IMG/VR virus record: IMGVR_UViG_3300029305_003192
Reading direction: 5' to 3' (one strand)
Source of the DNA: a virus
Taxonomy: Duplodnaviria > Caudoviricetes
DNA length: 64,000 nucleotides
In this document: positions 4,129 to 61,231 of the stretch, piece by piece
How positions within the stretch are numbered: the stretch's first letter is position 1
How the letters are laid out: the number at the start of each line of letters is the position of its first letter
The notes under the pieces: model-generated
Database searches by the model: none
What the model was told of the DNA's origin: nothing
Seen by the model: the letters and a program-made list of their open reading frames with translations, nothing else
Position numbers and translations under genes: made by a program

Positions 4129-6999
4129 TTAAATGAAGAGTTTATCATTCTCAACCTGCTTGAGACGAATACGAGATGAGTGGAATTTCTTCATACCTGC
4201 ATTAACGAATGTATTAGGAACTGTAGCGAAGTTGATACCTACATTCATGAGGTCCATTTCATATGGTCTGGAGCCAATACATGCTGAGCATATCTTCTCA
4301 CCAATACAGCACATTGGTGAACGTACTTTGATTGGTTTATTGATAAACTGCTTATAGTTCTCGTCGGTGACAGTAACTAATTTACCCTCACCTACGATGA
4401 CATTCTGACCTTCAAGGTCACGCCAATTATCCTCGGTGTATGTCAATGTTAAGTAACCCTTAGTATGACAATCTGAACCCTCTTCGTCTACTACGGTAGC
4501 GCCGAACAGAGCATAGAACTGCTTTGTTACATAACCAGCATCGGCTGTACCTACGGACTTAGGATATGAAGCAGATACCACCATGTTACCAGCTTTTGCA
4601 ATTTCGTCCTTTCTAAAGCCTTCTACATAGCTCGACTTAATAACGTCAAACTGACCTGTACCAGCATTATAAATAGGACCAATCATAGTATTGATATTCT
4701 TAAGCTGGTCATCGACTTTAGCCTTAGCACCAGATGCGAACAAAGTTCTTGATGTATCGGCATCAATTTTCTTCTTAAGCATATCTACAAGCTCATCCTC
4801 AAGAGCAGCCACTTCATCCAATGTCGGATTCGGGTTTTCTTTGAAGAATTGCTCCTTACGGGCAATAATCTTCTTGTCTGGAATAATTGTAGCCTCTGTC
4901 ATAGACGATGCGAAAATAGTAGTTGTCTTATATGCATAGAACTGAATAGCCTTAAGGAATGGCCATACTTTATCCGTGGTAATTCTATCATACTTAATAG
5001 CTGTAGCTACAAGGGCAAAAAGTTTCTCATACCCCTTCTTATCAATAGGGATATTCCAGTATCCATCTGGGATAATCTCAACGATATATGGCTCAATGAT
5101 AATCTTATTGAATGTAAGAATACCCAGGGTTGTTTCAACCGGTTTCTTATTGGTATACTGATTAGCAGCAAGAGTTACTGTATCATAATGAATATATTTG
5201 GAATTCTTAATCTTCTTGGTTTCAAGGTCGGTAGTCGTAGCAAACCATTCAGTTAACTTCTTCATACCAATATTCTTGTAGTTGGTATTCAATATCTCAG
5301 CAACAGCATGGGCTGGTGCAGGCTTACCCTTAGGGTTAAACTGCATCATAGAGTAAAGACCAAGTACACCCTCGTTACCCAGGGTCTTAATAAGTTTACC
5401 CTGACAGTCGATATAGTGCTTCTTAGACATGATAATATTCATTGTCTCGTCGTTAGCTTCCTTAGAGAACATAGCACGATGAGATGTTTGGTCGCCATCA
5501 TAGTCACCGCCGATAGCTTCGAGGAACGAGTTATCCATATTAAGAGTATCGTTGAACGCTACTGCCACCTGCTCCGGTGGTGCATCAGGTTCTACTACTG
5601 GGTAATATGGAAACTCTTTCTCAATACCCTGAATTCGAAGCTTTATTGGTGTAGTTTTGATGGTTGATAATACATGAATCATTGATGGGAAGATACCAAA
5701 GTATGAGATAAGTGGATATCTAGTAACCCACGTGGTCTTATCTGACGAGACCTCGACCGCTGCGATATATAGTAAATCAGTCCAAGTGAAATCACGATCA
5801 GCGATAGGTGCCATACCATCAGCATTCGGATTCTTCGGATCAAAAGGTCTTCCTGCAAACTTCAGTGGAATAATCTTCTGACCACTCGGAGTCTTGATTC
5901 GTACAGTCACGGGTTCAAATCTTGTCTCATAGTTATCAATGAACTTATCAATTCGCTTCTTGATAAGATCTGCAGTATAATCCTGCATTGGGTCATCAAG
6001 CTCATATGATTCAACATTACCGCCTTTAAGTGCCAAATTAAGTCGGTTACCCGATACTTCAAACTGCTCAGAAAGGTAATTGGCTACCCAACGAGCAATG
6101 AATGGGAATAATGTAACACAAAGCTCAGCAAGTGGAATACCTGTATGATTAACGTCAATAGGCACTTCATCCGGAGTATCATACTGGTCAAGTACCATAC
6201 ATGAGATAACTGAACGGTGACCATAGTCCGGAGCTTTACCTACAACGTACTTATTGAAGAAACCATCGGATTTCTCAATGATACTTCTGAAGTATTTATG
6301 GAGTTCCAGAGTCTTAAGCTGAATGCGATACTTCGCAGCATGACCCATGAATAAGAATGTCTTATCATTCAATGACTTTGCAAGACGAATGATATCGATA
6401 TACATATTATTGACCTGTGGAATCTTAGCAGGTCCATCGCCGGTTCTTTCCACATCTCTGTAGAATACCGGCTGTACTACGAACTTATTGATGAATATTT
6501 CATTCGGTTCAAATGACTCAATCATATCGATACGTTCGTTACGCTCTCTGGATTTATTACGCTTCCATTTAATCTTTGAGTAGTTCTTGATAAACCAATC
6601 CAATCCACAGTTAGCTGGATTAGCCTTCGGGTCATCATCTTTAAGTTTAATGAGGTCACCATTTTCAGTAACCTCCCAACACCCTTCGCCGGCGATACAC
6701 TTCGATATATTCTGCTGAAGTTTAGTAAGGATTTCATAAACGAATGGATGTATGATAGTTGTATTGAGATCGATATAAGCATACTGGCGCTTACGTTCAT
6801 CGACTGTCTTACCGAATATCTCTTCGGAGAATAATCCATCCACTGTAGGGATACCTTCTCTCTCAAAGGATACTGGATTGGTAACAGGCTTCATTCCGAG
6901 ATACTTAATAGACAGGTCAATTACTTCTTGCGTCTGGATGTCTACCTTTAATGGGACATCCGGTCCGACGGTGCGGACATCTGGCATTTCGTTAGCCAT
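4129..6999 (-). CDS. RNA polymerase beta' catalytic subunit (probably virion RNAP)
   Basis: GLFSEEIFG, GKAPDYGHRSVI, TRYP, GGDYDGD and TADAGYVTK beta' motifs; AAGGAGG SD before ATG 6999; late-type promoter upstream. Confidence 0.9.
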   Translation of the reverse strand: MANEMPDVRTVGPDVPLKVDIQTQEVIDLSIKYLGMKPVTNPVSFEREGIPTVDGLFSEEIFGKTVDERKRQYAYIDLNTTIIHPFVYEILTKLQQNISKCIAGEGCWEVTENGDLIKLKDDDPKANPANCGLDWFIKNYSKIKWKRNKSRERNERIDMIESFEPNEIFINKFVVQPVFYRDVERTGDGPAKIPQVNNMYIDIIRLAKSLNDKTFLFMGHAAKYRIQLKTLELHKYFRSIIEKSDGFFNKYVVGKAPDYGHRSVISCMVLDQYDTPDEVPIDVNHTGIPLAELCVTLFPFIARWVANYLSEQFEVSGNRLNLALKGGNVESYELDDPMQDYTADLIKKRIDKFIDNYETRFEPVTVRIKTPSGQKIIPLKFAGRPFDPKNPNADGMAPIADRDFTWTDLLYIAAVEVSSDKTTWVTRYPLISYFGIFPSMIHVLSTIKTTPIKLRIQGIEKEFPYYPVVEPDAPPEQVAVAFNDTLNMDNSFLEAIGGDYDGDQTSHRAMFSKEANDETMNIIMSKKHYIDCQGKLIKTLGNEGVLGLYSMMQFNPKGKPAPAHAVAEILNTNYKNIGMKKLTEWFATTTDLETKKIKNSKYIHYDTVTLAANQYTNKKPVETTLGILTFNKIIIEPYIVEIIPDGYWNIPIDKKGYEKLFALVATAIKYDRITTDKVWPFLKAIQFYAYKTTTIFASSMTEATIIPDKKIIARKEQFFKENPNPTLDEVAALEDELVDMLKKKIDADTSRTLFASGAKAKVDDQLKNINTMIGPIYNAGTGQFDVIKSSYVEGFRKDEIAKAGNMVVSASYPKSVGTADAGYVTKQFYALFGATVVDEEGSDCHTKGYLTLTYTEDNWRDLEGQNVIVGEGKLVTVTDENYKQFINKPIKVRSPMCCIGEKICSACIGSRPYEMDLMNVGINFATVPNTFVNAGMKKFHSSRIRLKQVENDKLFI

Positions 7000-7027
7000 T
7001 ATATTTAACCTCCTTTGTGAAGTCAAT

Positions 7028-7523: not shown

Positions 7524-7600
7524 AATTACCTCAACTTTCTACCACTTTATCGTGGCGGTCAAAATGATTTATTTAGAAGGCCGTATTACCTTCTATCTTA

Positions 7601-7638
7601 CTAATATGATATATATGCCATATATACGGAAATCACGG
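7601..7638 (-). promoter_or_regulatory. Early-type bipartite promoter CGTRATWT-N14-TATATAT
   Basis: CCGTGATTT-N14-TATATATCATATTAG; one of six equally spaced copies. Confidence 0.7.
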
Positions 7639-7645
7639 TGCATAG

Positions 7646-7684
7646 AAATACCCCCATTACCTATTATAGGTAATGGGGGTATTT
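7646..7684. terminator. Intrinsic terminator (CCCATTACC/GGTAATGGG family)
   Basis: Long perfect inverted repeat; same stem at ~50491, ~55897, ~60911. Confidence 0.8.
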
Positions 7685-7695
7685 AATATTCATAT

Positions 7696-34392: not shown

Positions 34393-34764
34393 TCATTTGT
34401 TATTGGTACCGAGTACCTGACGTTCAGCTCTGTCCTCGACACGCTTATTCATATACATGAGTGCGATTTCGAGGTGTCTGAGAGCTTCAGCATTCTCTTC
34501 GCAAGCAAAATCTCCTCCCTGGAAGAACTTAAGACGGTCTCTTACAATTTCGAGCAGGTCAGTATCAAGTACGCCTCTGATACTCTTCTCATCCTTACGA
34601 GGTCCCTTCTGGAATATGATAAGTGGGAAAGAGTAGTTCTCGTTATCTGCACAAACGATACGATACTCATGATGAGCCCCGCCTGGACCGATATCGTCTT
34701 CACGAAATACTCGGTTGAGCTTATTGTGCTTTTGGATTGTGATTAATTCTGTGCCTTTTGACAT
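34393..34764 (-). CDS. tad1: Tad1 Thoeris/CBASS anti-defence signal sponge
   Basis: [65 protein letters not shown] closely follow the Tad1 family pattern. Confidence 0.92.
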
Positions 34765-37644: not shown

Positions 37645-37711
37645 CAGACTAATTATACCCAGATAACCATATGGTTATCTGGGTATTTTCTATGCACCAA
37701 GGGGGGTATGA

Positions 37712-37748
37712 CGTAATATCGGTATATAGTACGTATATATCATATTAG
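37712..37748 (+). promoter_or_regulatory. Early-type promoter
   Basis: CGTAATAT-N14-TATATATCATATTAG. Confidence 0.7.
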
Positions 37749-37960
37749 TGAGAAAAATATATTTATGATTATCAATTCTCAGTTGGGACACCGGACGCCC
37801 GATCACGTCCGGATTCTATATGGTTGTGGTATGACGATCATATAGTCTAGGATTTTAAGATTGGCGTGGTACATACCGACTGCGCCCCAGGGCCGTGGCC
37901 TCCTACCAAAAACCCACGGAATATATCAGGATGACCAAACTGGTCATCCTGATATATTTA
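37749..37960 (+). ncRNA. Candidate stand-alone sRNA with kissing loops and anti-SD loop
   Basis: Between promoter and terminator, no SD-led ORF; four hairpins; loops GGTATG/CATACC complementary; CCTCCT loop. Confidence 0.65.
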
Positions 37961-37971
37961 TATTTTTTTTG

Positions 37972-42928: not shown

Positions 42929-42990
42929 CCTTTCTGTATAGACTTTACTTCTATGTTCGTATGTAATACTTACGCCGCTTATTTATAGAC

Positions 42991-43027
42991 CGTAATTTCC
43001 TCCTAGACCGGGTATATATCATATTAG
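42991..43027 (+). promoter_or_regulatory. Early-type promoter
   Basis: CGTAATTT-N14-TATATATCATATTAG. Confidence 0.7.
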
Positions 43028-43042
43028 TAGAAATATAAGAGA

Positions 43043-43092
43043 TATCGCTAAGTTATAGGGCACTTAGCGACGTATAAAAATAGCCCTTCATA
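43043..43092 (+). promoter_or_regulatory. Conserved 5' leader, H-type pseudoknot (copy 1)
   Basis: 9-bp stem TCGCTAAGT/ACTTAGCGA; loop AGGGC pairs with GCCCT 43083-43087; near-identical copy at 55986-56034. Confidence 0.7.
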
Positions 43093-43107
43093 GTAGGAGG
43101 TAATACT

Positions 43108-43503
43108 ATGAGAAACGTACTTGCAAACGCATTATCGCTCAATATGTTCAACCGTATGGTTCCAATGGATAACGATTATGGATATGCTGGTTTCGGTATA
43201 TCCGTAAAAGAGGTACGTCCAGAGGACGTGCCAAGGGACTGTGTGTCCATTATAGGACACACCGACACCGCTGCGGTGGTGTCATCAATGCTGGGATTTA
43301 ATGTCCCAGCAAACCGAATAGCCCATACAATAGAGAACGGTGACGTTCTCTTTGTGGCCCAGTACACGGGGCCACGACTCCCCGAGGGAGCCTCGAGGCT
43401 CCCTGAAGGAGGCATTATCCGGTTCTACCGGGTAATGGAAGTCGATCCGATACCCGACAACAACGGCTGTATCGGAGAAAGGAGGTTTTTCGTCGGCGAG
43501 TAA
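43108..43503 (+). CDS. acrIII-1: AcrIII-1 / DUF1874 (STIV B116, YddF-like) ring nuclease, anti-type III CRISPR
   Basis: NALSLNM, SIIGHTDTA (catalytic GH), NRI, GDVLFVAQY, PRLPEG motifs. Confidence 0.88.
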   Translation: MRNVLANALSLNMFNRMVPMDNDYGYAGFGISVKEVRPEDVPRDCVSIIGHTDTAAVVSSMLGFNVPANRIAHTIENGDVLFVAQYTGPRLPEGASRLPEGGIIRFYRVMEVDPIPDNNGCIGERRFFVGE

Positions 43504-43618
43504 TTGCCGACGAATACCAATACCAGGAGACGTGTCTCCTGGTATTTTTTTTGCTTTTAGAAGCACCAATTCCAAAACCTCTATATAATCAATTCCTAAC
43601 AGAAGGAGGTATAATATA

Positions 43619-50482: not shown

Positions 50483-50528
50483 GTAATTATTATCCCATTA
50501 CCTATATAGGTAATGGGATAATTTACAC

Positions 50529-50561
50529 CGTAATTTCCGTATATACTGCATATATATCATA
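50529..50561 (+). promoter_or_regulatory. Early-type promoter
   Basis: CGTAATTT-N14-TATATATCATA. Confidence 0.7.
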
Positions 50562-55888: not shown

Positions 55889-55933
55889 AAATATTATCCC
55901 ATTACCCTTCAAGGGTAATGGGATAATTTATGC

Positions 55934-55970
55934 CGTGATTTTAGAGATAAGTGCATATATATTATATTAG
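55934..55970 (+). promoter_or_regulatory. Early-type promoter
   Basis: CGTGATTT-N14-TATATATTATATTAG. Confidence 0.7.
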
Positions 55971-55985
55971 TAGCAATAAAGGAAG

Positions 55986-56034
55986 TATCGCTAAGTTATA
56001 GGGCACTTAGCGACGTATAAAATAGCCCTTCATA
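55986..56034 (+). promoter_or_regulatory. Conserved 5' leader, H-type pseudoknot (copy 2)
   Basis: Same as 43043-43092 except one A fewer in the linker. Confidence 0.7.
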
Positions 56035-56048
56035 CTGGAGGTAATAGT

Positions 56049-56336
56049 ATGAAAGAATCCGTTGTTACAAGAACCGTAATATTTGTCAATCCAGAAAGAT
56101 TGACATTCGACACATCTATCAAAGATGTGTTGAAAAAGACAGGAAACGCGTTTGTGCAGTTACTTGATAACGAAGATAACGTAGCTGATACGGCGCGTGC
56201 GATTCGAGCAAACCTCGCAGATCATACATCTGCAGGAAAGAGCCCGGTTAATGTTGTGCTTTCCGGATTCGACTACGACCCGGAAATTCTCGAGGCAATC
56301 GAGAAAAATGGTTGTAAGCTTATCTGGGCTTGCTAA
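56049..56336 (+). CDS. Hypothetical small alpha/beta protein, early-type cassette
   Basis: 95 aa, GGAGG SD, alternating beta/alpha pattern. Confidence 0.8.
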   Translation: MKESVVTRTVIFVNPERLTFDTSIKDVLKKTGNAFVQLLDNEDNVADTARAIRANLADHTSAGKSPVNVVLSGFDYDPEILEAIEKNGCKLIWAC

Positions 56337-56407
56337 ATAATTAAACAGCACCGCCAAGTAATCATACTTGGCGGTTTTGGAATTACCTTGGCGGTGCTGT
56401 TTTTTTT

Positions 56408-60905: not shown

Positions 60906-60976
60906 TTAATATCCCATTACCATTATGGTAATGGGATGAACTATTCAAGCATGACCCATAACAGGAGGTAAAAGTT

Positions 60977-61231
60977 ATGGCAAATATTTATATATGTACA
61001 GACCGCCAGCCTGTGAGTGAAGAATTCTCTAAGAGCGTCGCTGGCGTATCTCTTTTACTCAAAAGGAGTAAAGTTGATGGTAAGCTCGCTGTTATCAGCG
61101 CAGCGAGCGGTGAGATCCTTTGGGTGACGACGGCCATCCAGCATGAGGAACGAGACGTACCTGGTACTGATCTCGTTATCGTGACGGCGAATTCCAAATA
61201 TACATTTAGAAAGATTGGTGAAACAGTATAA
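60977..61231 (+). CDS. Small hypothetical beta-rich protein, stand-alone gene
   Basis: 84 aa, AGGAGG SD, flanked by terminators. Confidence 0.75.
   Translation: MANIYICTDRQPVSEEFSKSVAGVSLLLKRSKVDGKLAVISAASGEILWVTTAIQHEERDVPGTDLVIVTANSKYTFRKIGETV

Follow-up and report, generated by a model that had tools for sequence, protein, structure and literature searches.

The window, as we call the whole 64,000-nucleotide stretch analyzed here, is included in a 108,703-bp IMG/VR record estimated to be 45% complete. Judged by its sequence, the phage is an uncultivated jumbo phage and a distant relative of the AR9/PBS1 type. Its capsid protein is ~22% identical to that of AR9/PBS1-type phages, the only relatives recovered by tblastn; a pattern search of IMG/VR returned no capsid relatives, and the same genes were found on a 239.6-kb contig.

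Two genes of the window, designated cargo A and cargo B, are each preceded by a near-identical leader (Table 1). The product of cargo A scored 31.1 bits against Pfam PF08960 (cut-off, 26 bits) and matched PDB entries 2j6b, 2x4i, 6scf, and 2j85, with its SIIGH aligned to the IGH of 2j6b and 2x4i; it is predicted to be a member of the AcrIII-1/DUF1874 ring nuclease family that keeps the G-H active-site motif. The gene sits between a prohead protease gene (minus strand; PF03420 and PF20034) and the head genes, whose major head protein corresponds to phrog_20655. Cargo B matched nothing in Pfam, PHROG, or PDB. When PDB and BFVD were searched by fold with its AlphaFold2 (AF2) model (pLDDT, 82), nothing beyond generic Rossmann-like matches came up (E above 0.005), and the one long match from a representative search (P0126), a eukaryotic saposin, was rejected as a false positive. 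The products of cargo A and cargo B are unrelated (BLASTP E = 3.3), as the sequence-only reading of this DNA had held. Both cassettes are monocistronic and terminator closed, and each copy forms a self-contained unit of promoter, leader, ribosome-binding site, single gene, and terminator. No HTH/RHH (aca-type) gene was detected by Pfam among the tested neighbors of either cassette.

Elsewhere in the record, a group I intron lies at 140-476 (+; Rfam RF00028, 56.8 bits, full-length model match) between ORF fragments, one ending at 175 and the next starting at 491. A giant ORF of 3396 aa (62062-72252, +), for an ortholog of which a weak Peptidase_C39_2 match is recorded, follows an ORF-free gap of ~830 nt.

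Table 1. Coordinates of the features of the two cassettes
Feature	Position	Strand	Description
Promoter, copy A	42990-43028	+	CCGTAATTT at 42990-42998, fixed 23-nt register, TATATATCATATTAGT at 43013-43028
Stem 1 (S1), copy A	43045-43053 with 43062-43070	+	9 bp; RNAfold, RNAalifold
Loop, copy A	43054-43061	+	UAUAGGGC, 8 nt; AGGGC at 43057-43061 is the 5' strand of stem 2 (S2)
Linker, copy A	43071-43082	+	11-12 nt; length kept, A-richness not
S2 3' strand, copy A	43083-43087	+	GCCCU, pairs with loop AGGGC
Hairpin 2 (H2), copy A	43087-43112	+	9 bp, 43087-43095 with 43104-43112; -9.1 kcal/mol
SD, copy A	43096-43100	+	GGAGG, in H2 loop
AUG, copy A	43108-43110	+	In H2 3' arm
Cargo A	43108-43503	+	131 aa, AcrIII-1/DUF1874-family gene (predicted); PF08960 and PDB matches
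Terminator closing cassette A	43519-43546	+	12-bp stem, then T-run
Terminator hairpin, TCCCATTACC..GGTAATGGGA family	55893-55927	+	16-bp stem, directly upstream of promoter B
Promoter, copy B	55933-55971	+	CCGTGATTT, then TATATATTATATTAGT
Pseudoknot (predicted), copy B	55988-56029	+	S1, 55988-55996 with 56005-56013
Loop, copy B	55997-56004	+	
Linker, copy B	56014-56024	+	
S2 3' strand, copy B	56025-56029	+	
H2, copy B	56029-56053	+	-8.4 kcal/mol
SD, copy B	56037-56041	+	In H2 loop
AUG, copy B	56049-56051	+	In H2 stem
Cargo B	56049-56336	+	95 aa, no family; small alpha/beta fold in AF2 model
Hairpin closing cassette B	56350-56375	.	Between convergent genes

A repeated promoter-leader segment

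Exact matches to the 30-mer TATCGCTAAGTTATAGGGCACTTAGCGACG are found at 43043-43072 and 55986-56015, both on the plus strand, and the two copies of this region differ by a single A in the A-run. No further match was found with up to 3 mismatches, nor did any occur in 100 shuffles. The near-identity of the leaders, first noted from the sequence alone, is thus borne out; further copies were sought across the whole 108,703-bp record by pattern search and covariance model, and there are only these two. When both loci were aligned, similarity reached 5' across the promoter and 3' to GGAGG and ATG, so the repeat is ~100 bp long rather than 52. It comprises, in order, a CCGTRATTT box (at 42990 and 55933), the AT-rich box TATATATYATATTAGT (at 43013 and 55956), the leader, and GGAGG with ATG.

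The promoter motif reads CCGTRA-N17-TATATA plus CATATTAGT, contains no TTGACA, and is not sigma-70-like. Its two parts recur with identical spacing at least six times in the record and are present in relatives as well. The sequence-only reading had placed the leader between an early-type promoter and an SD; the placement stands, and the "early" label is an analogy only, based on resemblance to the early consensus of phage AR9, which is extended and AT rich (AAATATATATTAT-N6-G; PMC5312081). No Pfam RNA-polymerase domain was found in the 108.7 kb of this record, which represents an estimated 45% of the genome. A stable hairpin, unrelated in sequence, also opens other transcripts of the same promoter class, which fits a general role for 5' hairpins. 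At 37711-37971 (+), a promoter of this class faces ~260 nt without a listed ORF; a small RNA or a tiny protein may be encoded there.

A terminator hairpin of the TCCCATTACC..GGTAATGGGA family is often fused to this promoter. Composites of the hairpin and the ACCGTRATTTCC/TATATATCATATTAGT promoter were located at ~7600-7690 (-), 50487-50560 (+), and 55893-55971 (+), the last being that of cassette B, and a member of the hairpin family at 60906-60945 (+) stands without a promoter. Copy A sits between divergent genes, with no TCCCATTACC..GGTAATGGGA terminator upstream. A second promoter-like repeat, TTTTTTGCTTTTAGAAG..CCAAAACCTCTATATAAT, is found before structural genes, at 43547-43618 (+) and upstream of 4129-7026 (-), with a weaker, partial resemblance upstream of 75383-77650; it may represent a late promoter class.

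Predicted fold of the leader

The 9-bp S1, the 8-nt loop UAUAGGGC, the 11- to 12-nt linker, and the AGGGC/GCCCU complementarity between loop and tail are all as first described. A loop-tail complement alone is weak evidence for a pseudoknot, as 31 of the 272 hairpins in this genome (~11%) have a 5-nt complement of this kind by chance. Covariation was counted over 12 leader variants from independent metagenomes, using a model-based alignment (A6) and a register-correct alignment (A7), and all three helices (S1, S2, and H2) are maintained through compensatory changes. S1 shows both-sided changes in 5 of 9 pairs, plus two sense-strand G.U pairs. S2 shows them in 2 of 5 pairs (A:U to G:C and C:G to U:A), with the other three pairs invariant; both changes are confined to one divergent lineage, L061, and S2 is unchanged in every other homologue. 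Across 8 distinct sequences S2 is fully paired in all cells, and in A7 the paired fraction was 112/112 cells (100%), compared with 26 to 50% when partners were slid. None of 500 shuffles matched the observed S1/S2 pairing together with its both-sided changes. S1 and H2 were also predicted independently by RNAalifold.

L061, the most remote homologue, is informative about what is retained. Its leader is only ~50% identical, yet stem lengths, loop size, linker length, and S2-H2 spacing are unchanged: the loop is AAUGGGGU (8 nt), the tail is ACCCC, both terminal S2 pairs are compensated, the linker has 11 nt, and a 1-nt gap precedes H2. The linker of L061 is not A-rich, so the A-rich character ascribed to this segment, although seen in most copies, is not a conserved feature. 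Loop lengths are constant in all variants (L1, 3 nt for a 5-bp stem; L2, 0 nt; L3, 11 to 12 nt for a 9-bp stem). In L025, the core differs by 3 substitutions and 1 indel in 45 nt, and the adjoining genes are near synonymous saturation. The covariation among copies on which the original proposal hinged is thus present in both pseudoknot stems. Based on these comparisons, S1 and H2 are very probably real helices, and the leader probably forms an H-type pseudoknot, with the S2 compensation contributed by the single lineage L061.

H2 had been overlooked in the sequence-only reading. RNAfold predicts it in both copies, with the SD in the loop and a 3' arm that takes in the AUG plus the start of the second codon. 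S2 ends on the nucleotide that opens H2, the only one that the two helices share; across variants, the spacing between them is 0 to 2 nt and the H2 stem has 5 to 9 bp. H2 is kept in ~10 sequence versions, with a G:C to C:G swap between copies A and B, three forms of alignment pair 56:73 (CG, AU, and GC), and two of pair 57:72 (UA and CG). Its predicted stability ranged from -6.1 to -9.1 kcal/mol in 11 variants differing in sequence, compared with a median of -2.3 kcal/mol for the translation-initiation regions of the 102 ORFs in the record, among which those of copies A and B rank 2 and 5 in structure. A similar start-codon hairpin (60952-60985, +; CAUAAC/GUUAUG, SD in the loop, -6.5 kcal/mol) is carried by an 84-aa gene at 60977-61231 and comes without S1 or S2; judging by this example, H2 may be a separable module, or the example a remnant of the leader.

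The pattern of substitutions also bears on the strand and the molecule involved. All one-sided changes yield G.U on the sense strand, where the other strand would read A.C, which points to an RNA transcribed from the plus strand rather than to a DNA palindrome or a minus-strand terminator. A DNA-level element whose RNA fold is incidental, be it an operator for a dimeric protein, a minus-strand terminator, or a recombination anchor, might have been suspected because a palindrome lies just 3' of the promoter, the minus strand is terminator-like by score, and the breakpoints of the allele islands described below fall at leader borders. However, S2 and H2 covary though they are not palindromes, the half-sites are 17 bp apart center to center and their sequence differs at 7 of 9 positions, and a recombination anchor needs identity, whereas the L061 leader has diverged with its fold kept. 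The minus-strand terminator and the DNA operator were rejected on the sense-strand G.U pairs and the S2/H2 covariation, and we consider an exclusively DNA-level function very improbable.

Other pairings and features were examined and set aside. A CCUUC anti-SD pairing with GGAGG is missing from L025, L026, and L061; a CCUU pairing with the 5' purine tract is not maintained in copy A; and a leader peptide was rejected because the leader has no start codon. On the sense strand, Rfam 15 gave no match at the gathering threshold or at E values up to 10. The sole overlapping Rfam entry, Fusobacteriales-1, lies on the opposite strand (30.7 versus 52.1 bits).

Distribution of the leader and exchange of cargo alleles

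Exact and degenerate leader patterns recovered only chance GGGC/GCCC hairpins from IMG/VR, JGI metagenomes, and GTDB genomes, and homologous loci were reached through the cargo proteins instead. Orthologs of cargo B (~50 to 73% identity) were found at loci L024 to L028, L056, L057, and L061, and orthologs of cargo A (69 to 71% identity) at L037 to L043. The leader is present at all of them. Among these sampled relatives it always precedes the same two genes, and they form one narrow phage clade. With a covariance model of the leader (R1), three jumbo-phage records of more distant kinship (167 to 247 kb) yielded no copy, and none was detected upstream of more distant acrIII-1 genes; those of other phages, at 56% identity or less, lack the leader, and two such loci have the same promoter motif with different structured leaders.

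These observations bear on the proposal that promoter, pseudoknot, and ribosome-binding site form a reusable module for anti-defense genes in general. This claim is weak, since there is one annotated cargo only and a candidate Acb2/Tad1-like gene has no such leader. In addition, the 95-aa cargo has no recognizable function, and the more distant acrIII-1 loci carry other leaders. The Acb2/Tad1 candidate is a 123-aa ORF beside the DNA polymerase gene (34393-34764, -) that is not variable; its L037 ortholog, 97% identical, has a recorded match to PF24729 (Acb2/Tad1 hairpin), and the protein itself gave no Pfam match in hmmscan at E up to 0.01. The shared leader does make the fast-exchanging 95-aa gene a reasonable candidate for a role in host interaction or anti-defense.

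In relatives, flanking genes are 90 to 99% identical to the window (~95%), while the two cargo genes are 40 to 80% identical. For cargo A, dS was 0.45 to 1.0 (dN/dS, 0.2 to 0.4), compared with 0.12 to 0.32 for its flanks; for cargo B, dS was ~2.2 or saturated (dN/dS, ~0.2), compared with 0.23 to 0.38 for its flanks, giving a range of 0.12 to 0.38 for flanking genes in close relatives. High cargo dS next to low flank dS indicates that the cargo genes are old functional alleles swapped between near-identical backbones, and not simply genes that evolve fast. The left border of the exchanged island takes two forms. In the first, it falls inside H2, such that the leader stays and the gene is swapped; in the second, seen in L061, it falls exactly 5' of S1, such that leader and gene are swapped together and the promoter stays. 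Cassette exchange, which had been suggested to run through the repeat, is therefore upheld as far as old-allele swaps between near-identical genomes with breakpoints at the leader edges are concerned; recombination between the two copies was not seen. The locus shows how a jumbo phage can keep a promoter in place while the accessory gene behind it is replaced, with or without its leader. Relatives also carry an extra 88-aa gene by terminator-hairpin elements, between a 425-aa gene and cassette B (L057:5400-5880), and an extra Metallophos gene after the capsid gene (L038:8511-9342).

The same data speak to a recent, functionless duplication of the promoter-leader segment, which the single-base difference between the window copies might suggest. 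Both loci carry the leader in every sampled relative, however, and in the only other phage sample that has both loci, the copies at L043 and L057 (SRR12277005, presumed to be one phage) differ at several positions. The leader also persists where synonymous sites are saturated, and its helices have undergone compensatory changes. A recent duplication without function is scarcely tenable and is already contradicted by the comparative data.

Proposed role and comparison with known systems

We propose, with middling confidence, that the leader is a cis-acting, self-folding translational gate and 5'-end stabilizer on exchangeable cassettes. The leader would be transcribed from the repeated phage promoter class and fold into S1 and S2, the H-type pseudoknot, followed by H2. 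The 30S subunit would dock on the SD exposed in the H2 loop, and initiation would need H2 to melt, since the AUG and second codon are locked in the stem. The pseudoknot, presumably stacked on H2, would hold the closed state and insulate the ribosome-binding site from the downstream coding sequence, whichever that is. It might also protect the 5' end of the mRNA, shielding from RNase J being one possibility raised in the sequence-only reading, and offer a likely handle for a putative trans-acting regulator. The leader also marks the edge of the exchanged segment, either as its conserved left border or by traveling with the gene. What the data support directly is that three helices covary, that H2 is unusually strong, that the cassettes are laid out as single-gene units, and that alleles have been swapped. 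Against a gate, lowering the translation of a counter-defense enzyme that is needed at once would have no obvious advantage; S2 and H2 share one nucleotide only, so no mutually exclusive switch is visible; and Pfam and PHROG searches of the neighbors found no regulator gene adjoining either cassette. Should expression prove truly independent of the cargo, the leader could serve as a naturally insulated expression part where ribosome-binding sites are of the Firmicute type.

A trans-acting binder of the leader is plausible by analogy with Aca proteins and gp32. A protein-bound translational operator, in which a phage regulator would bind the pseudoknot and repress or time the translation of cargo A and cargo B as a small regulon, would be the gate in a more specific form, on the same structure; we regard it as possible though rather unlikely. 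Such a regulator would account for the same RNA on two unlinked genes, and even the divergent L061 retains GGG/CCC, the loop 1 AU, and the linker UA without change. Precedents are the Aca proteins (Aca1 and Aca2 on hairpins in acr 5' untranslated regions), which bind hairpins right after the transcription start, with shared motifs lying ahead of several anti-defense operons (PMC13551039), and the T4 gp32 operator, a 5' pseudoknot adjoining the ribosome-binding site (PMC535899). On the other hand, the cassettes are monocistronic, no HTH/RHH gene occurs among the neighbors tested, and the loop and linker sequence of L061 is largely changed with the fold kept, so structure rather than sequence seems to be selected.

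The pseudoknot might instead be a sensor, that is, an aptamer for a metabolite, for an immune signaling nucleotide such as a cyclic oligoadenylate, or for a host factor, which would alter the accessibility of H2 and open it only when defense is active. Such control would have counter-defense genes translated on demand and would be the first riboswitch-like regulation of phage anti-defense genes. Size and topology do resemble those of small H-type pseudoknot aptamers, core nucleotides are conserved, a hairpin like an expression platform directly adjoins, and one cargo is predicted to degrade cyclic tetra-adenylate (cA4). We nevertheless find a riboswitch highly unlikely: no Rfam riboswitch model matched even at E up to 10, there is no conserved competing helix (L025, L026, and L061 have lost the CCUUC anti-SD pairing), the SD lies outside the pseudoknot, the element is restricted to one narrow clade, and the variation in loop 1, the linker, and two S2 pairs would be unusual for a binding pocket.

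The leader can be compared with several known systems. In Bacillus and its phages, 5' stem-loops and polypurine stretches stabilize mRNAs. The element described here similarly places a stable structure near the putative 5' end, preceded by a purine-rich stretch resembling AAAGGAAG; unlike in those stabilizers, the purine stretch is variable, and a stabilizing function would leave S2 and H2 unexplained. Small riboswitches of the H type, including preQ1-I, SAM-II, and similar RNAs, also consist of a loop-tail pseudoknot of 40 to 45 nt beside a ribosome-binding site, with a third loop that, as in most copies of the present leader, is A-rich. The leader differs from them in having no Rfam match, an SD outside the pseudoknot, a 9-bp S1, and an A-rich loop that is replaced in L061.

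Pseudoknots serve as translational operators in E. coli, where rpsO is paired with S15. The same holds for gene 32 of phages T4 and RB69 (PMC535899). These operators share with our leader an H-type pseudoknot 5' of the ribosome-binding site; they are autogenous, with the protein binding its own mRNA, whereas here two unrelated genes share one leader. Downstream of the gene 32 pseudoknot the RNA lacks structure, whereas our leader has a tight hairpin there.

The promoter-early stem-loop (PeSL) cassettes of T4-like phages combine a terminator hairpin with a strong promoter and end in an SD; they precede variable genes of no known function, also inside conserved structural modules, and mark points of gene replacement between near-identical phages (PMC2839356, PMC4122927). 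Similarly, the TCCCATTACC..GGTAATGGGA terminator is joined here to ACCGTRATTTCC-N-TATATATCATATTAGT at several loci upstream of variable genes; the composite is found at cassette B and other loci, with copy A lacking the terminator. Unlike in PeSLs, the promoter is not sigma-70-like, only allele replacement per locus was seen, without exchange between copies or mini-circles, and the element is a transcribed leader downstream of the promoter with covarying helices and a probable pseudoknot, which PeSLs lack.

Aca-bound RNA motifs are structured, covarying RNAs in the 5' untranslated regions of anti-CRISPR operons (PMC13551039). In both cases, a structured, covarying RNA lies in the leader of an acr gene and recurs before other unannotated genes of one phage. 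The present cassettes differ in that no aca gene lies in or beside them, no DNA operator is seen in the promoter, and the predicted structure is a pseudoknot plus start-codon hairpin in place of a single short hairpin. Post-transcriptional control of phage counter-defense genes has been recognized only recently, so far in the form of Aca-bound single hairpins. Overall, the leader described here is a candidate new RNA motif, a pseudoknot plus start-codon hairpin on the AcrIII-1 gene of a jumbo phage, with no aca partner among the neighboring genes tested.
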